Shown here in pieces: positions 638 through 31,968 of a DNA stretch of 63,268 bases. The stretch is from contig JBIOIQ010000005.1 in NCBI GenBank assembly GCA_044449985.1, forward strand, positions 1-63,268. Reading direction: 5' to 3'. The first letter of the stretch is position 1. The number at the start of each line of letters is the position of its first letter. A program made the position numbers and the translations under genes. The notes under the pieces are model-generated. The model was given only the letters and a program-made list of their open reading frames with translations, was not told the DNA's origin and ran no database searches. The stretch is from Candidatus Saccharimonadia bacterium. GTDB taxonomy: Bacteria; Patescibacteriota; Saccharimonadia; UBA4664; JBIOIQ01.

Positions 638-914
638 CTTGTAAGAAAGTTACTTAAGGGCGCATGAAGGATGCCTTGACGTAAAGTACCGACGAAGGGC
701 GTAGAAGGCTGCGATAAGCCTCGGTGAGCTGCCAATCAAGCTTTGACCCGGGGATTTCCGAATGGGGCAACCCAGTACGGGTAATACCGTATTACCATCA
801 TCTGAATATATAGGATGATCGGAGGGCACGTTGTGAACTGAAACATCTTAGTAGCAACAGGAAGAGAGAGAAACCTCAATTCCCCAAGTAGCGGCGAGCG
901 AACAGGGAAGAGCC

Positions 915-1095
915 AAAACTTTTTAATTTTTCGCAAGTTTACTTGCGAATAAGCTGACAGGCGAATAATTAAAAAGGGTTGTGAGACTACAAACGACCAT
1001 TAAAGAGCACTGTTACAGTTAATCTGGCAAAAGTGGTCTTTAATGTGACGGAACCGCTGTCACGGACCGGTAAGGTAAGAAAATTAGAGATTAAT
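915..1095 (+). other. AT-rich expansion block in 23S domain I (~145-180 extra nt)
   Basis: About 180 nt lie between the GAGCC and GGAAGGATCTGGAAAG landmarks, versus ~36 nt in E. coli. The block has internal stems, for example CTTTTTAATT/AATTAAAAAG. Confidence 0.6.
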
Positions 1096-2526
1096 GGAAG
1101 GATCTGGAAAGTTCCGCCAAAGAGAGTGAAAGCCTCGTACATGAAAACCTCTAGTCCTTATGTTTGTTTTCTCGAGTAGGTCGGGACACGTGAAACCCTG
1201 ACTGAATCTGGGAGGACCACCTCCCAAGGCTAAATATACTTTACGATCGATAGCGAACAAGTACCGTGAGGGAAAGGCGAAAAGAACCCCGGAAGGGGAG
1301 TGAAATAGAACCTGAAATCATGTGCCTACAATGAGTCAGAGCAGATTTATTCTGTGATGGCGTGCTTTTTGTAGAACGATCCAGCGAGTTAATTTACAGT
1401 GCGTTAGGTTAAGCCATATGGCGGAGCCGTAGTGAAAGCGAGGGTTAATAACCCGAATTAGTACTGTGGATTAGACCCGAAACCGGGTGACCTAACCATG
1501 GGCAGGCTGAAGCGTAGGTAACACTACGTGGAGGGCCGAACCAGGGACAGTTACAAATGTCTTGGATGACCTGTGGTTAGCGGAGAAATTCCAATCGAAC
1601 TCGGAGATAGCTGGTTCTCGTCGAAATAGCTTTAGGGCTAGCGTCATAAACTACCTCCTGGGGGTAGAGCTCTGTTTGGGTTAGGGCCAGCAATGGTACC
1701 ACGCCCTGGCAAACTGCGAATACCGGGAGAGACTATTATGGCAGTCAGAAAGTGGGGGCTAAGCTCCATTTTCAAAAGGAAAACAGTCCAGACCGCCGTC
1801 TAAGGCCCCTAAATTCTAGCTAAGTGGGAAACGATGTGGAGATGCATAAACAACCAGGATGTGGGCTTAGAAGCAGCCATGCATTTAAAGAGTGCGTAAC
1901 AGCTCACTGGTCAATTGTGACTCTGCGCGGAAAATATAACGGGGCTCAAGCTAGATGCCGAAGACGCGGACTTCGTACGCAAGTACGGATTGGTAGACGA
2001 GCGTTCCTCGTGTTGTGAAGCCGAGCCGGAAGGCCAGGTGGAATGCGGGGAAGTGAGAATGCTGGAATAAGTAACCATAAGTCGGGTGAGAATCCCGACC
2101 ACCGAAAGAGCAAGGTTTCCTGGGCAACGATTATCGTCCCAGGGTTAGTCGGGCCTAAGCCGAGGCGAGTAGCGTAGGCGATGGACAACGGATTAATATT
2201 TCCGTACCGGCGACGATGTTGTCTATGATTGCGCGGCGTGGTAGCTCGAGCGGATTTTTGGCTATATCCGTCCAAGCAGGTAGTCTGCCGTAAGGCAGGT
2301 GAGACGCAAATGAAACGGCCGTAAAAGGCTGAATTCGAGCAAGCCAAGCTGACCAGAAAAGATCATAGATGTATGAAATCGTAGCCGCCCGTACCGCAAA
2401 CCGACTCAGGTGCTCAGGTCGAGTAGACCAAGGTGTACGAGAGAACCCTCGTTAAGGAACTCGGCAATACAGCGACCGTAACTTCGGGATAAGGTCTGCC
2501 GGGGCGCTCTTCACTTTGTGAAGTGC

Positions 2527-2605
2527 AATTCCCTAAATTGAAAGTATTTTTTTCTTGAATCAAAAGAATACTACGTGTAAAGAAAGAAGACATTGTTAAG
2601 CTCAT
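2527..2605 (+). other. AT-rich expansion block in 23S domain IV variable helix (~70 extra nt)
   Basis: The region between AACTTCGGGATAAGG and GCGACTGTTTAGCAAAAACACAGG is about twice the E. coli length. Confidence 0.5.
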
Positions 2606-2799
2606 TACACAGTGATGAGCGTCTCGGCCGCAGCAAAAGAGCCCATGCGACTGTTTAGCAAAAACACAGGTCTGTGCTAAAGCGAAAGCTGATGTATACG
2701 GACTGACGCCTGCCCGGTGCTGGAAGGTTAAGTGGAGAGGTGCAAGCTTTGAAATGAAGCCCCAGTAAACGGCGGCGATAACTATAATCGTCCTAAGGT

Positions 2800-3114
2800 A
2801 GGATAAAGCTGCTTTAGTGAGGTGAGAGCCCTCCTCTAGTTTTACCTCTGTGCAGAGGTTTTAAGAGAAAATCTGGCTATATGCTGGAAAACCCGTGAAT
2901 CCTGGACTAGTCAGAATGCTTCACTGCATACTGACTGACAATGTTATAGGTGCGGATGATCAGCAGGAAAGATTTGATTATAAATCAAATATCCTCAGAG
3001 ACTACACGCCGGATCTGCTTTAATAGGCAGAAAGATATAGTCCGAACTGTTTGGCGACAAACAGACTACGAGATAGCTAAAGTCACGTAGCACGAAATAT
3101 CGTGTAACAAATTA
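2800..3114 (+). ncRNA. Group I intron without ORF in 23S at about E. coli U1931 (boundaries +/-2 nt)
   Basis: It interrupts CCTAAGGT|AGCGAAATTCC. Exon CTAAGGT (2793-2799) pairs with intron GCTTTAG (2811-2817), giving U2799.G2811 at the splice site. The core motif CAGAGACTACA...AAAGATATAGTCC (J8/7-P7) is present. Confidence 0.8.
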
Positions 3115-3134
3115 AGCGAAATTCCTTGTCGGGT

Positions 3135-3848
3135 AAGACAAGGCAACCCGTGTTAAATACGGGAAGTGAACTTGCCCATGCTGGCTAATAACGGTGAAAC
3201 CCTATTGCTTGTTCGTATTATGTTCGGTAAATTGAACATATGATTTCAATCAAGGGTAATACCGTGGGAAGTCGTCCAACATGTTGGATTGACCCCGTAA
3301 CGACTAAGTCGAAAGACGCGATAGTGGCTACTACTCCTGATGGAGTAAATTTATGGCTACTATAATACGCCGGCCTCAGACCTATATTGCCCCATATTTC
3401 TCAGGTTTTATCGATGGCGAAGGCTGTTTTACAGTTTCAGTTAGTCGAAGAGCAAAGATGAATATGGGCTGGGAAGTTAGACCAAGTTTTTCAGTAAGTC
3501 AGAATAAAGATAGAGCAAATGTGCTGTATCTGATGATGGATTATTTTCAATGTGGTTCAATCCGTCCGGATCGATCCGATAATACTTTGAAATATGAAGT
3601 TAGATCGCTTACGAAGCTTACAGATAACATTATTCCTCATTTTGAGGAATATCCTTTGCTTTCTAGTAAACAAAATTCATTTCAGGCTTTTAAAAAGATC
3701 TGTTTAGAAATGCAAGATGGCAAACATTTGTCACCGAAACATTTAAACTCGATTTTACAAAGAGCAGAAATGATTAACGGCGGAAAACGCAAGTATAGAT
3801 TTGGGAAGATATAGTCTGGTCCTACGAGTAATCGTAGACACGGAATCG
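3135..3848 (+). mobile_element. Group I intron with LAGLIDADG homing endonuclease gene in 23S at E. coli U1951
   Basis: It interrupts TTGTCGGGT|AAGTTCCGACCTGCACGAATGG. The guide sequence GAACTTGCCC (3168-3177) pairs GCCC with the 5' exon GGGT (U.G at the splice site) and GAACTT with the 3' exon AAGTTC. The intron ends in G3848 and carries the core motif GGAAGATATAGTC. Confidence 0.9.
3353..3814 (+). CDS. LAGLIDADG homing endonuclease, single-motif (I-CreI-like homodimer type), intron-encoded
   Basis: The 153-aa protein has the motif YFSGFIDGEGCF near the N-terminus. GGAG lies 7 nt upstream of the ATG, and the ORF sits inside the L1951 intron. Confidence 0.9.
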   Translation: MATIIRRPQTYIAPYFSGFIDGEGCFTVSVSRRAKMNMGWEVRPSFSVSQNKDRANVLYLMMDYFQCGSIRPDRSDNTLKYEVRSLTKLTDNIIPHFEEYPLLSSKQNSFQAFKKICLEMQDGKHLSPKHLNSILQRAEMINGGKRKYRFGKI

Positions 3849-4107
3849 AAGTTCCGACCTGCACGAATGGCGTAACGATATGGGCACTGTCTCAACGAGG
3901 GACTCGGTGAAATTGTATTAGCGGTAAAGATACCGTTTACCCGCACCAAGACGGAAAGACCCCGTGGAGCTTTACTACAACTTGGCATTGGGCCGAGTTG
4001 CGACATGTGTAGAATAGGTGGGAGGCTTTGAAGCGTCGGCGCTAGCCGATGTGGAGCCGCAATATGAAATACCACCCTTGCTGTAACTTGTGTCCTAACC
4101 AGTGCCG

Positions 4108-4214
4108 CAAATTGCGCATAAAAGTTGGATCAGAGTAGAGAGCATCCAAATGGTCCGACTAAATATTACTTTCAAATGGTTTTTACATACCTTTTGTTAA
4201 ATTATGCTCAATTT
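4108..4214 (+). other. 107-nt AT-rich insertion capping a 23S domain V helix (E. coli ~2200-2225 region)
   Basis: The conserved stem CAGTGCCG/CGGCACTG (4100-4107/4216-4223) encloses 107 nt, where E. coli has a short hairpin loop. Confidence 0.6.
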
Positions 4215-4599
4215 CCGGCACTGGAACAGTGTCTGGTGGGTAGTTTAACTGGGGCGGTTGCCTCCCAAAGAGTAACGGAGGCGTTCAAAGGTTGGCTAGG
4301 TTCGGATGGAAATCGAACCGATAGTGCAAACGCAGAAGCCAGCTTGACTGTGAGGCCTACAAGCCGATCAGGTACGAAAGTAGGAGTTAGTGATCCGCTG
4401 CAAATTAGTCCCGATGCTTTTGTGTCGGGATGCGAAAGTGGAATCTGCAGCGCTCAACGGACAAAAGTTACCCCGGGGATAACAGGCTTATAGCGCCCAA
4501 GCGTCCACAGCGACGGCGCTGTTTGGCACCTCGATGTCGGCTCGTCCTATCCTGGGGGGGAAGCACCTCCCAAGGGTTTGGCTGTTCGCCAATGAAAAG

Positions 4600-4647
<48 letters not shown>

Positions 4648-4975
4648 TGGTGTGGGCGTAAGGAAATTTGAGAGGAGTGACTCCTAGTACGAGAGGACCG
4701 GAGTGAACGAACCTCTGGTGTATCGGTTGTTCTGCCAAGGGCTTCGCCGAGTAGCTATGTTCGGACGAGATAAGCGCTGAAAGCATATAAGCGCGAAACT
4801 TACCTCAAGATTAGATTTCCCAATCAGACCCCATGTAGACTACGTGGTTGATAGGCACTAGGTGTAAGCACAGTAATGTGTTCAGCCGAGGTGTACTAAT
4901 AGGTCGAATGACTTTTTTACAAAACTTTTTTTGTCATATTGTCGATTTTTTGGGCAAAATGGCGCTAAAAGTATT

Positions 4976-6164: not shown

Positions 6165-6349
6165 GTTATAGCGTCCGGGTCGGAACGCGAACTCCGGAAA
6201 ATCCTTGGCTAGTTCCAGAATACCCTCCTTTTTGGTTTAGCTTGCTCGGATTAATCTAGACGAAGTATAAGCTTGCGAAAAACGAATGTCTAGCATAAGC
6301 ATTTTTGTTATTCTATCTGAAAATGAGGCAAGAATTTGATGATTTGATT

Positions 6350-6378
6350 TTGACAATCAGGTACAAATGTGGTAGACT
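6350..6378 (+). promoter_or_regulatory. Sigma70-type promoter (TTGACA-17-TAGACT)
   Basis: -35 TTGACA (6350-6355), a 17-nt spacer and -10 TAGACT (6373-6378). This would give a ~225-nt leader for CDS 6609. Confidence 0.5.
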
Positions 6379-29014: not shown

Positions 29015-30373
29015 ATGGCTGAAATACTTCCAGAAGTTGAGACTTTTGCCCGCATAAAAGTTATCGGTATTGGTGGTGGCGGTGGTGCTGCCATCGAAAG
29101 AATGATCGTATCGAAGGTGCAGGGAATAGAGTTTGTAGCGGTTAATACCGATGCGCAGGCTTTGCATTACTCCCATGCCCAACATAAGCTTCATATCGGA
29201 AAACAGACCACTCGCGGACTTGGTGCGGGTGCTGACCCGGAAGTAGGTCGAAAAGCAGCTGAGGAAAGCGAATCGGATATTGCCGATATGCTCAAAGGCT
29301 CTGATATGGTATTTATAACAATTGGTGCTGGAGGTGGAACCGGTACCGGAGCAGCGCCGTTAGTTGCTGCCACCGCCCGGGAGACTGGCGCATTAGTCGT
29401 AGGGATTGCCACCAAACCGTTTACTTTTGAAGGTGAGCGACGTCGGCGAGTGGCCGAGGCCGGGATAGTCGAGCTAAAAGACAATGTTGATACCTTAATT
29501 ACAATCCCGAACGATCGCTTGCTCCAAATGATCGATCGTAAAACTTCACTGCTTGATGCCTTTAGCGTTGTCGACGAAGTTTTGCAACAAGGCGTGCAGG
29601 GCATATCCGATCTCATTACGATTCATGGCCTGATAAATCTCGATTTTGCTGACGTTAAGGCGATTATGAGCAATGCCGGATCGGCACTGATGGGAATTGG
29701 TCGAGCGGCCGGAGATAATCGAGCGATTGAAGCTGCCCGTCAGGCGATTGATTCGCCATTACTTGAGATATCAATTGATGGCGCTAAGGGAGTACTCTTT
29801 AATATTACCGGTGGACGCAACATGAGCATGCATGAAATTGATGAGGCGGCCAAAACTATTACGGGCGCTGTCGATCAGGATGCCAACATAATATTCGGTG
29901 CAGTGCTGGATGATACGATGGATGATGATATTAAAATTACGGTGGTCGCGACTGGGTTTGATAACCGACCTCGAGAACATATTCATGTAGAAAATCGACC
30001 GGAAAGATTGCAAGAACGTTTGCTTGTTCCTGAGGAAGAACCCGAACCGGTGTTCGCGAGCCCAGTAATTACTGAGAATCGTAAGCCATTTATTGATGAA
30101 CGTCCGCAATTTATTGAACCTGAAACCATCCTTGAGGACCCGGTGATTGCGGAAGTCGTTGTCTCGTCTGTTATGAGTATCGAACCTGACCCGGAAGAAT
30201 TCGAACCCGAAGCCAGTTTTTTTGAAGAACCAGCACCGCGAAAGAGTATCTTAAATGATAAGCCAATGATTGAAAAAAATCCGCCGGAGCCGGAAGCCAA
30301 GCCAAACGAACGGGAGTTTCCATCAGAGGATGATCTCGACATTCCGGCCTTTATCCGACGCAAAGTCGAGTAA
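29015..30373 (+). CDS. ftsZ: Cell division protein FtsZ with long Pro/Glu-rich C-terminal linker
   Basis: [10 protein letters not shown] tubulin signature and the conserved C-terminal peptide [12 protein letters not shown]. Confidence 0.97.
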
Positions 30374-30389
30374 CAACACTTAGCCCAAG

Positions 30390-30418
30390 TTGACATTCCA
30401 TTTATCTGGAATTACTAT
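30390..30418 (+). promoter_or_regulatory. Sigma70-type promoter (TTGACA-17-TACTAT)
   Basis: -35 at 30390-30395 and -10 at 30413-30418, 17 nt after the ftsZ stop. Confidence 0.55.
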
Positions 30419-30508
30419 AGCTTTCGTGAAGACAACGCCACAACTTATGAAGAGATATTACCGAGGGTTTGCACTTGATCTCTTTATTGTTGCCCCCCGC
30501 TGCTAACG

Positions 30509-30555
30509 GCCTTTTAAATGATCATCATAAAAGGCCTCCAAGAGAGGCCTTTTTC
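30509..30555 (+). promoter_or_regulatory. Mutually exclusive hairpins: candidate antiterminator plus intrinsic terminator (attenuator-like)
   Basis: Hairpin 1 is GGCCTTTTA (30509-30517) with TAAAAGGCC (30529-30537). Hairpin 2 is AGGCCTC (30533-30539) with GAGGCCT (30544-30550), followed by a T run. The two share 30533-30537. Confidence 0.5.
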
Positions 30556-30560
30556 AATAC

Positions 30561-30681
30561 TAGCCTGTAGCTCAATGGAAGAGCGCACAAAGTTAGTCCG
30601 GAAGTGCTCCTACGTATCCCTAGTAGCACTTTTTAGCGACGGTACAGAGTGAGGTTATGGGTTCGACTCCCATCAGGCTGC
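30561..30681 (+). tRNA. Non-canonical tRNA-like gene (normal acceptor, D and T arms; 72 nt in place of the anticodon/variable region); isotype undetermined
   Basis: Acceptor TAGCCTG/CAGGCTG, then TA, D arm GCTC-AATGGAA-GAGC and T arm ATGGG-TTCGACT-CCCAT. There is no encoded CCA, and the internal segment is ~50 nt too long. Confidence 0.5.
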
Positions 30682-30685
30682 TCCA

Positions 30686-30764
30686 GGGGGCTTAAGCTGA
30701 TATATGGACAGCTGCTGCAGCGGTTTTGCAGTGTATGAGAGTTCGAATCTCTCAGCCTCCACCA
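30686..30764 (+). tRNA. tRNA with alanine identity set (G3.U70, A73, encoded CCA) but aberrant anticodon loop GCGGTTT (nominal anticodon GGT)
   Basis: Full cloverleaf: GGGGGCT/AGCCTCC acceptor, AGCT/AGCT D stem, CTGCA/TGCAG anticodon stem, 5-nt variable loop and GAGAG-TTCGAAT-CTCTC T arm. Position 33 is C and position 37 is T. Confidence 0.6.
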
Positions 30765-30968
30765 CTTTAGAATGGCACTGGTCGGTTGCAATCACCCAGA
30801 AAGAGGGGGACTGCTGTGAGCAATACCAGGATTCACTTCTTTTTTCGAGCTGCGGGACGCAGAGAATGCACCAACCCTCAAGTTATTGAGCAAGGTGCGG
30901 CGGCCTGGAAAGTTGTCGAGCCTCTCATTTTAGAGGGCTTAATAGTGCCAAGATGGCCGATCGGAAAG

Positions 30969-31124
30969 GTTAAGGCCTATACTTACTCCTTGTGGACTCT
31001 GTGTCAGGTTGAAATACCTGATCAATCTCGAGCCACCGTTGCCGAGCGAATTTACGTCGTCGGATTCCTCGCCCAGCGTTCACCGAAGCCTGCCCGGCTC
31101 GCGTCGGAGGATCTGTACGACTAA
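30969..31124 (+). pseudogene. Possible truncated paralogue of the downstream 31218-31475 gene
   Basis: The track ORF 30786-31124 ends ...KVKAYTYSL..AERIYVV..SP..RLASEDLYD*. This is colinear with VKAYVLYT..AEEIYAD..SP..RIAEIYDL in the downstream protein. It lacks an SD or start and lacks the C-terminal half. Confidence 0.3.
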
Positions 31125-31154
31125 ATCCAAGCCAGTTCAAAAATGTCGAGATAT

Positions 31155-31196
31155 GCCGGTGATGGGAGTTTGTTCAAACGAACTCTTATCACCGGC
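31155..31196 (+). other. 19-bp uninterrupted hairpin with 4-nt loop (no T-run)
   Basis: GCCGGTGATGGGAGTTTGT-TCAA-ACGAACTCTTATCACCGGC, 19 consecutive pairs including 3 G.U. Confidence 0.7.
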
Positions 31197-31217
31197 TCGC
31201 GTGTTATACTTACCCGT

Positions 31218-31475
31218 GTGAAGGCTTACGTTTTATACACCCAAGATTCGCCGATTCATCGAGAAGTTGCTCGTTTCTGTGAGAAATTAATTCGACTTGG
31301 GGTTGAAGCCGAAGAGATCTATGCTGATTCGCCTGAAGGATCAAGGATAGCCGAAATTTATGATCTTATGAGTCGACCCAGTGTCTTACTGGTGCGCGGT
31401 GACGGTAGTGTAGTTGAACGTTGGGAGCATGATCTGCCGCAGCCTGAAGATGTCAGTTACCTGGCGCATATATGA
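31218..31475 (+). CDS. Small glutaredoxin/thioredoxin-fold-like protein lacking CxxC, unknown function
   Basis: The beta-alpha-beta-alpha-beta-beta pattern runs KAYVLYT / SPIHREVARFCEKLIRLG / EAEEIYAD / RIAEIYDL / SVLLVRGDGSVVERWE. I prefer the GTG at 31218 because the track ATG at 31143 would translate through the 19-bp hairpin. It overlaps yggT by ATGA. Confidence 0.55.
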   Translation: MKAYVLYTQDSPIHREVARFCEKLIRLGVEAEEIYADSPEGSRIAEIYDLMSRPSVLLVRGDGSVVERWEHDLPQPEDVSYLAHI

Positions 31476-31744: not shown

Positions 31745-31968
31745 GCGATGATAAGCCCGACATTATGTAAAGCGTTTCATCAATAATCGATGAAAGAGCG
31801 GCTATCAACCGCAATGAGTGGGACAAGTTCTCGGCGCGCAGCAGGAAAAATCGAGAACCTTCTCGACTAGAACCTGACGGACTGCCTCGTAAGTGCAGCA
31901 ATGAAGTTCCACCAAGCAGGGTGGTACCTCCGCTGGTTTAGCGGACCCTGCAGAGGTGGTTTTTTGTT
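31745..31968 (+). promoter_or_regulatory. T-box riboswitch leader of ileS
   Basis: T-box sequence AAGCAGGGTGGTACCTCCG (31914-31932) lies within a terminator/antiterminator region (CCACC..GCAGGGT..CCGCT/AGCGG..ACCCTGC..GGTGG plus T6). A GATGA K-turn-like element sits at the base. Candidate AUC-A specifiers are at 31804-31807 or 31778-31781. Confidence 0.8.

Follow-up and report, generated by a model that had tools for sequence, protein, structure and literature searches.

Transfer RNA (tRNA)-shaped RNAs that do not decode are rare and informative, and the main examples are transfer-messenger RNA (tmRNA), Y RNA-like RNAs, and mascRNA. The tRNA-like domain of tmRNA includes reduced mitochondrial forms without the messenger RNA (mRNA) part, and mascRNA, the MEN-beta tRNA-like structures, and tRNA-Other of Bacillus cereus are processed by tRNA enzymes and are not ordinary adaptors. 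YrlA reportedly joins a tRNA-like module, with mimicry of the T and D arms, to a long helical stem. Here we analyzed a 63,268-nucleotide (nt) stretch of a Saccharimonadia (candidate phyla radiation) chromosome, referred to here as the window (contig JBIOIQ010000005.1), which contains a 121-nt tRNA-like element just 3' of ftsZ (E1, positions 30561-30681, forward strand) followed by a second one (E2). Our data suggest that E1 is the gene for a non-decoding tRNA mimic, composed of a tRNA handle and a variable rod, that would produce a stable non-coding RNA; we give this reading a probability of roughly 0.55. A further parallel, and the only precedent that our literature search turned up, comes from Lak megaphages, whose tRNAs carry 'enigmatic introns'; according to the authors of that study, there was no earlier report of introns in phage tRNAs (Devoto et al. 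2019, PMC6784885). The Lak tRNAs were assigned an anticodon and an excision point by tRNAscan in eukaryote mode (PMC6784885).

Structure and detection of E1

The original prediction, made by reading the letters alone, described a tRNA-like gene with intact acceptor, D, and T arms that are separated by an oversized interval. Its arms, coordinates, and 72-nt interval were all reproduced to the base, as follows:

30561-30567, forward strand: acceptor 5' strand (TAGCCTG), pairing with CAGGCTG at 30674-30680 over 7 base pairs (bp), with U1.G72
30568-30569, forward strand: TA dinucleotide
30570-30573 and 30581-30584, forward strand: D stem (GCTC/GAGC) around the loop AATGGAA, which contains GG
30585-30656, forward strand: D-to-T interval, 72 nt where about 23 are expected
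30586-30651, forward strand: rod as folded here, for which the minimum-free-energy structure equals the centroid structure
30657-30673, forward strand: T arm (ATGGG-TTCGACT-CCCAT) with a TTCGA loop
30674-30680, forward strand: acceptor 3' strand (CAGGCTG)
30681, forward strand: discriminator C
30682-30685, forward strand: 4-nt spacer (TCCA) between E1 and E2

E1 has a canonical acceptor stem, a D arm with G18G19, and a T-Psi-C-type T loop, all in the standard register, and its 121 nt lie outside the 73-93 nt length of decoding tRNAs. The minimum-free-energy fold of the whole element is a cloverleaf whose anticodon arm is a single long irregular hairpin. This rod starts with 3 bp (CAC/GTG) at the beginning of the anticodon stem, runs through internal loops into a 9-bp helix (GGAAGTGCT/AGCACTTTT), and closes with a CTA/TAG stem and an 8-nt loop; AGTGCT (30603-30608) faces AGCACT (30625-30630) inside it, as first noticed in the original prediction. 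Nowhere in the 72 nt did we find a 5-bp anticodon stem with a 7-nt loop that carries U33 and a purine at position 37. Since a hairpin rod of approximately 66 nt replaces the anticodon arm, E1 cannot read a codon. The earlier remark that no anticodon can be read holds both for E1 of the window and for its ortholog described below.

In a sensitive search of positions 30350-30950 (601 nt), the Rfam tRNA model (RF00005) matched E1 end to end (model positions 1-71) with 39.1 bits (gathering score 29; E = 9.4e-07), and the alignment accommodates 60 nt of the anticodon arm as an insert. A filtered Rfam scan of the whole window missed E1 and returned only 23S rRNA, 5S rRNA, and a group I intron within the 23S ribosomal RNA (rRNA) gene. 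ARAGORN was run in default, intron, lowered-threshold, tmRNA, and mitochondrial modes, of which intron mode alone called E1; default ARAGORN missed it and reported zero tRNA in the whole 63-kb window. Of the checks proposed with the original prediction, the sensitive Rfam search and intron-mode ARAGORN recovered the element and default ARAGORN did not.

E1 resembles the Lak megaphage tRNAs in that both are oversized and are missed or left unclassified by bacterial-mode finders, and in that the inserts of both are short and neither group I nor group II (PMC6784885). Unlike the Lak tRNAs, E1 has no readable anticodon in either ortholog, and it is chromosomal, bacterial, and located behind an attenuator. 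Bacterial Y RNAs such as YrlA (RF02553) are likewise two-part RNAs with a tRNA-like module and a long helical stem; however, the 5' and 3' ends of YrlA belong to the Ro-binding stem, which takes the place of an anticodon stem, whereas E1 ends in its acceptor stem. The RF02553 model gave E1 14.5 bits against a cut-off of 69, with a match that spans the E1/E2 junction, and no Ro/TROVE gene was noticed among the window open reading frames (ORFs) scanned. mascRNA, MEN-beta, and tRNA-Other differ from E1 in organism and context, are of ordinary tRNA size, and have no rod in place of the anticodon arm. E1 also differs from tmRNA, as it has no alanine identity (U1.G72, G3-C70, C73). Our literature search found nothing relevant on tRNA-like RNAs or tRNA introns in Patescibacteria/Saccharibacteria. 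While tRNA mimics and unexplained phage tRNA inserts are known kinds, we did not find described a chromosomal bacterial example that has an ortholog with compensatory changes and no recoverable anticodon, nor one with a tandem, anticodon-less tRNA-Ala look-alike as partner or with attenuator control.

E1 and its neighbour E2 in related genomes

We retrieved loci of relatives by means of FtsZ, 172 in total. An ortholog of E1 (L081:5584-5695) occupies the same site behind an equivalent leader and terminator in a relative whose FtsZ is 82% identical, and this locus comes from an independent assembly of a different sample (Logan ERR6862845). The Rfam tRNA model matches the ortholog with 43.1 bits and a 50-nt insertion, and the fold of the whole element has z = -5.1. 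Between the window and L081, the acceptor stem changes at pair 1 (U.G to A-U), pair 2 (A-U to G-C), and pair 5 (C-G to U.G), the anticodon stem at pair 28 (A-U to U-A) and pair 29 (C-G to U-A), and the T stem at pair 49-65 (A-U to G-C). Five of these (pairs 1, 2, 28, 29, and 49-65) are double changes that preserve pairing. The TTCGA T loop, the GG of the D loop, and U8 are kept in both copies. The rods share no sequence and contain a 9-bp helix in the window and an 11-bp helix in L081, where the rod is an equally strong hairpin. Compensatory changes thus keep the tRNA core paired in these two loci, and for the rods only the hairpin, not its sequence, is kept. An ortholog with compensatory changes argues against both an assembly error and a decaying pseudogene, and it favors the option of a tRNA-mimic RNA that the original prediction had listed. 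On this comparative evidence, E1 is a real, structurally constrained, tRNA-shaped element without an anticodon.

The acceptor end differs between the two orthologs (U1.G72/C73 in the window, A1-U72/G73 in L081). Since the discriminator and the first acceptor pairs are not the same, no amino-acid identity is conserved. E1 is more likely to be a protein-binding or decoy RNA, with a tRNA-mimic handle on a variable helical rod, than an amino-acid carrier.

The 'second odd tRNA' noted beside E1 in the original prediction was confirmed as E2:

30686-30764, forward strand: E2, 79 nt, cloverleaf resembling tRNA-Ala, with A73, an encoded CCA, and G1-G4/C69-C72 (G3:U70 among these pairs)

E2 ends in ...AGCCTCC-A-CCA, and its cloverleaf fold has z = -2.5. 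In the window, the arm at the anticodon position can fold either into a 7-bp stem that closes a 5-nt loop or into a 5-bp stem with GCGGUUU as its loop; L082 has a 7-bp stem and the loop UUAUCGG there, and in L083 a UUCG tetraloop caps 5 bp. When the 172 loci were searched with a covariance model of E2, the only orthologs were at L082:6237-6312 and L083:6409-6477. In addition, L172:4203-4217 opens the same element (GGGGACTAGGTAACTA; first bases GGGGACT) and stops at the contig end. Across the three full copies, G1-C72, G2-C71, G3.U70, G4-C69, and A73 are invariant, and 10 of the 21 pairs change on both sides. Paired cells amount to 96.7% in these three sequences, compared to 41-49% with the partners slid, counted in a covariance-model alignment that leans towards the model structure. 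E2 is more widely conserved in the clade than E1. A model of the three sequences scores ordinary phage tRNA-Ala genes at 40-51 bits, and these data are consistent with descent of E2 from tRNA-Ala. G3:U70 is the major determinant for alanyl-tRNA synthetase (AlaRS). Judged by its conserved acceptor, E2 is an element that keeps the full AlaRS acceptor identity set without any anticodon.

E2 shares with tmRNA (RF00023) the alanine acceptor (G3:U70, A73, CUCCACCA), the T arm, and the lack of an anticodon. Both ends of the tmRNA model align with E2, with 302 model positions skipped and a score of 27.6 bits that stays short of the gathering score (47). In contrast to tmRNA, E2 measures 79 nt, its D stem is a true one, and its anticodon-type arm is closed; it is devoid of a resume codon, a tag ORF, and pseudoknots, and ARAGORN in tmRNA mode gave no match. 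A weaker and less tRNA-like E2 candidate (L028:5396-5471; 24 bits) was found 3' of ftsZ in a relative that is more distant; it has G3:U70 and A73, its T loop is non-canonical, and it apparently has a -10 box and a terminator of its own. This candidate and an element on a huge-phage contig (L192:220-296) are mini tRNA-likes that combine a T arm with an acceptor stem carrying G3:U70/A73 and have no normal D or anticodon arms; they are matched only by the two ends of the tmRNA model (15.7 bits for L028 and 22.8 bits for L192).

Several observations weigh against the reading of E1 as a conserved mimic. The fold energy of the window copy is no better than that of shuffled sequence (z = -0.72), and among the 172 loci E1 is found in the closest relatives only (FtsZ at least 77% identical). 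In L083 (FtsZ 77%), a degenerate version at the same position (6273-6363) consists of a closing stem of 7-8 bp with A-CCA after it, a long hairpin, and a tetraloop on a 6-bp stem, without canonical D or T loops. L082 (FtsZ 79%) has an unrelated palindromic repeat of approximately 130 nt in E1's position, L172 (FtsZ 78%) has nothing there, and L081, which has E1, is without E2. With two clear copies and one degenerate copy of E1 and three full copies of E2, the covariation counts are suggestive rather than statistical. Taken together, comparison of these loci indicates that E1 is under structural constraint in part of the clade, yet dispensable.

The relatives included a synteny sample of 80 GTDB species and 80 JGI metagenome loci picked by FtsZ (best 63-71% FtsZ identity). 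ARAGORN, a regular expression, and the covariance model found neither E1 nor E2 in this sample, except for the weak, non-canonical L028 candidate. An exact-protein look-up with the window FtsZ gave no match. Among closer relatives, loci L165-L171 have a different or compact arrangement with neither element, and L164 and L172 end at contig ends. The alignments that MAFFT produced for E1 and for E2 did not respect the structure of the D arm and the rod.

Palindromic elements resembling miniature inverted-repeat transposable elements (approximately 110-130 nt, hairpins of -30 to -46 kcal/mol) are present at L082:5318-5440, L082:6096-6225, and L083:5328-5415. The latter two are 75% identical and the first, assigned by eye, has no BLAST match. 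The element at L082:6096-6225 occupies exactly the site of E1 in the window.

Long tRNA-like elements in phage tRNA arrays

We searched IMG/VR for the pattern TAGCTCAATGG, 60-90 nt, GGTTCGANTCC, which occurs in at least 120 stretches. At least 55 of the 84 pattern instances listed (at least 48 of them distinct) have 6 or more of 7 acceptor pairs in the tRNA register as well as a T stem, for which the calculated chance expectation is approximately 1.3%. These viral long tRNA-likes lie within phage tRNA arrays, among ordinary tRNA genes, and among the matches listed nearly all have 48-71 nt between the D and T arms. We know of no earlier description of them. The Rfam tRNA model scored five of them between 43 and 56 bits, with one large insertion each:

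L173:272-386, long tRNA-like, 56.5 bits
L189:553-655, long tRNA-like, 53.5 bits
L242:1271-1375, long tRNA-like, 49.3 bits
L182:72-176, long tRNA-like, 44.1 bits
L229:953-1061, long tRNA-like, 43.3 bits

Among the matches listed, about half of the viral elements fold as a single rod like E1, and 6 of 48 can be read as a canonical tRNA with one loop insertion, such as tRNA-Asn(GUU) with 43 extra nt in L173. One homologous phage pair (L183/L255) has compensated changes in the rod. E1 shares with the phage elements a core made of the TAGCTCAATGG D arm, the GGTTCGANTCC T arm, and a 7-bp acceptor stem, and in both, tens of nucleotides that fit no known intron class are added between the D and T arms. 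E1 differs from them in that it has no rod sequence similarity and is without the ACAGCAA hairpin motif of one phage subfamily. In our reading, E1 belongs to a larger group of mostly uncharacterized long tRNA look-alikes, which are numerous in phage tRNA arrays. Since standard tRNA finders skip such elements or call them inconsistently, tRNA inventories of phages and of the candidate phyla radiation are probably miscounted.

The phage subfamily just mentioned has a conserved internal hairpin followed by ACAGCAA(U) (L198:3235-3348, L254, L269, L179, L180, L195, L258, L292, and L228). Its acceptor, hairpin, and T stems covary, and no known RNA family matched it. The huge-phage contig L192 carries a long tRNA-like in addition to its mini tRNA-like. 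L182 also contains, at 1-61, a match to the 3' end of GOLLD RNA (29.4 bits) that is truncated by the end of the locus; the long tRNA-like at 72-176 follows directly.

Predicted leader attenuator, proposed mechanism, and alternative explanations

The window FtsZ (29015-30373) has its best relatives in metagenome-assembled genomes of Saccharimonadia/Patescibacteria. The gene order is adk, map, ftsA, ftsZ, an intergenic region of approximately 440 nt, ORF X, ORF Y, yggT, ileS, a FtsW/RodA-family gene, and a ParA-type ATPase gene; the remainder of the window consists of housekeeping genes. Between ftsZ and ORF X, we found the following features in addition to E1 and E2:

30390-30418, forward strand: sigma-70-type promoter (TTGACA, 17 nt, TACTAT; 10 of 12 matches)
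30447-30506, forward strand: leader ORF of 19 codons (MKRYYRGFALDLFIVAPRC), with its stop codon 1 nt before the antiterminator arm
30508-30536, forward strand: antiterminator hairpin (GGCCTTTTA ... TAAAAGGCC), truncated fold -12.3 kcal/mol
30530-30556, forward strand: intrinsic terminator (AAAGGCCTC-CAAGA-GAGGCCTTT plus T-run), read directly and folded, and missed by a simple terminator scan
30816-31124, forward strand: ORF X, 102 codons, GTG start after AAGAGGGGGA, approximately 50 nt past E2

The position given for E1 in the original prediction, 5 nt past a terminator composed of a hairpin and T-run and 4 nt before a second tRNA-like, was borne out. No other promoter-like site was found between ftsZ and the downstream ORFs, and none between the terminator and E1, so that E1 and E2 would share one transcription unit. 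Equivalent TTGACA promoters precede the leader in L081, L082, L083, L172, and L165, and related leader peptides (MK...L-[FLV]-I-V...) with synonymous codon differences are encoded in the first four of these. The 3' arm of the antiterminator overlaps the 5' arm of the terminator, and the alternative pairing GAGGCTTTCG/CGAAGGCCTC recurs with compensating changes in all five relatives. The attenuator is conserved in six loci, window included (L081:5390-5570, L082:5905-6095, L083:6083-6255, L172:4006-4185, and L165:3886-4035), and at each of them the leader stop codon lies in or adjoins the 5' arm of the antiterminator. Given this position of the stop codon, the predicted arrangement reads as a classical translation-coupled attenuator. 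The attenuator of L165 precedes GCS2 and M20 peptidase genes, and its leader peptide is without L-[FLV]-I-V. The stress-induced tRNA operon of Anabaena was considered as a parallel for attenuator control and dropped, as its paper mentions neither a leader nor an attenuator.

In the mechanism that we propose, E1 would be made only when transcription reads through this attenuator. A ribosome that reaches the leader stop codon would cover the antiterminator arm and favor termination, and a ribosome stalled earlier, in the L-F-I-V stretch, would favor read-through. E1 would then be co-transcribed with E2 and the downstream small ORFs. E1 keeps the parts that processing enzymes see (i.e., the acceptor/T-arm stack and the D-loop/T-loop elbow). 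RNase P would cut at 30561 and 30686, the 3' ends would be trimmed, and the CCA-adding enzyme would add CCA where it is not encoded. Such processing would free a stable E1 of approximately 121 nt and E2 of approximately 76-79 nt and would part the leader from the downstream mRNA. E2, with its whole alanine acceptor identity set, would be charged by AlaRS and, as a non-decoder, would act outside ordinary translation.

A bolder reading, which we consider less likely than not, is that E1 and E2 are paired non-decoding mimics induced by ribosome stalling on the leader peptide. E2 might deliver alanine or act as a decoy, for example in cell-wall or lipid aminoacylation or in the handling of stalled ribosomes. 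E1-type 'rod tRNAs' might have a function of their own, for example as decoys for tRNA-targeting enzymes, and might form a widespread, undescribed class common to bacteria of the candidate phyla radiation and phage tRNA arrays. The locus combines a conserved tRNA core with a rod, an anticodon-less neighbour with an alanine signal, and a translation-sensing attenuator. If E1 and E2 are stable and E2 is charged, this would point to an undescribed use of the tRNA scaffold and would offer a comparatively simple chromosomal system for studying the 'enigmatic introns' of megaphages.

We weighed the reading of E1 as a non-decoding mimic against several alternatives. One of these, a novel intron type, was named in the original prediction. 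E1 would then be a tRNA gene with a short intron, comparable to the 'enigmatic introns' of Lak megaphages, and removal of the rod would yield a decoding tRNA. Short unexplained inserts in phage tRNA genes are indeed on record (PMC6784885), the 6 of 48 viral elements mentioned above can be read as canonical tRNAs with one anticodon-loop insertion, and intron-mode ARAGORN does call E1. However, no single contiguous excision in the window or L081 copy rebuilds a 5-bp stem that closes a 7-nt loop carrying U33, and relaxing the stem to 3 of its 5 pairs does not change this; the window copy keeps only 3 bp of the anticodon stem. Apical loops of L081 and L083 that pass U33/R37 give differing triplets (CGU and GAC), at a chance pass rate of one loop in eight. 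The intron-mode calls clash between orthologs: Val(UAC) in the window, which takes a 31-nt intron at 35/36 and a 22-nt variable arm and which we rejected as ad hoc, is contradicted by Ser(GCU) in L081, and both calls need non-canonical intron sites. The group I model RF00028 has no match at E <= 10 in 30350-30950, though it finds the 23S intron of the window at 2790-3064, and an insert of approximately 50-60 nt compares with a group I core of at least approximately 200 nt, in agreement with the earlier remark that the insert fits no group I class. A relaxed bulge-helix-bulge scan matched at 4 places of the window copy and at 2 of L081, compared to 2.1 and 3.4 in shuffles (i.e., chance level), with no such match at an anticodon-loop position in either. 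No splicing endonuclease or ligase was noticed among the ORFs scanned in the 63-kb window and the short relative loci, and acceptor identity and discriminator are unlike between orthologs. On this evidence, an intron in E1 appears unlikely.

We consider it doubtful that E1 and E2 serve only as cis-acting tRNA-like punctuation (i.e., sites for RNase P and 3' processing that free the leader from the downstream mRNA and set its stability), even though they have no separate promoter, E1 starts 5 nt past the terminator, and E2 ends approximately 50 nt before ORF X. The replacement of E1 by another hairpin element in L082, its absence from L172, and the degenerate L083 version, which keeps the overall shape only, would fit such a role as well. 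Punctuation needs no alanine identity, yet G3:U70, A73, and G1-G4 of E2 are invariant while the remainder varies; moreover, the possible relative in L028 is apparently a stand-alone gene, and the phage long tRNA-likes sit in tRNA arrays rather than in mRNA leaders. The insertion of a small palindromic mobile element into the anticodon loop of a tRNA gene, now dead and decaying, would agree with the hairpin-forming repeats in the same intergenic region of L082 (6096-6225) and L083 (5328-5415) and with the presence of E1 in some relatives only. Such decay, also listed in the original prediction, is very unlikely: the five double changes keep the E1 stems paired, the two rods form intact helices despite their unrelated sequences, both copies retain the T loop, the D-loop GG, and U8, and no part of the rod matches the palindromic repeats. 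Furthermore, relatives carry the same odd element at this site or none, never an ordinary tRNA. The original prediction also allowed for an error of assembly. We found nothing in its favor, and the independent L081 assembly, with its matching architecture at this site, in effect refutes it.

E1 is not in a phage tRNA array, and no deposited phage resembles the region. An integration-site remnant was considered and rejected, as neither the 3' half of E1 nor that of E2 recurs in the window. ORF X has no Pfam, PHROGs, or NCBIfam match and is not conserved across four lineages; only its L081 and L083 versions resemble each other, weakly, and it therefore gives no functional lead. ORF Y (31143-31475), just upstream of yggT, encodes a small conserved protein (...YILY.KDSP...VEADS.EG...YDL..RPS...DGS..ERW.G.LP...VSYLAH) without a Pfam, NCBIfam, or PHROGs match. 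Its relatives are found at L081:6221-6478, L082:6737-7063, L083:7008-7283, and L168:4297-4548; adjacency to yggT is unconfirmed in L082, where no YggT gene was called. Directly upstream of ileS, a T-box-like leader (31805-31952) has a short Stem I along with the AGGGUGGUACC motif; at 22.9 bits it stays far below the Rfam cut-off of 93, and a similar sequence precedes ileS in L004. Since ileS has a T-box-like leader of its own, the attenuator is not simply a control of ileS.

By default ARAGORN or Rfam at gathering thresholds, the 63-kb window contains no ordinary tRNA gene, and its aminoacyl-tRNA synthetase genes encode IleRS, HisRS, a class I LysRS, SerRS, and one further class II enzyme. The 23S rRNA gene (643-4920) spans 4278 nt compared to 2925 in the model and holds a group I intron (2790-3064), an ORF for a LAGLIDADG homing endonuclease (3353-3814), and further large insertions (e.g., near 928-1075).

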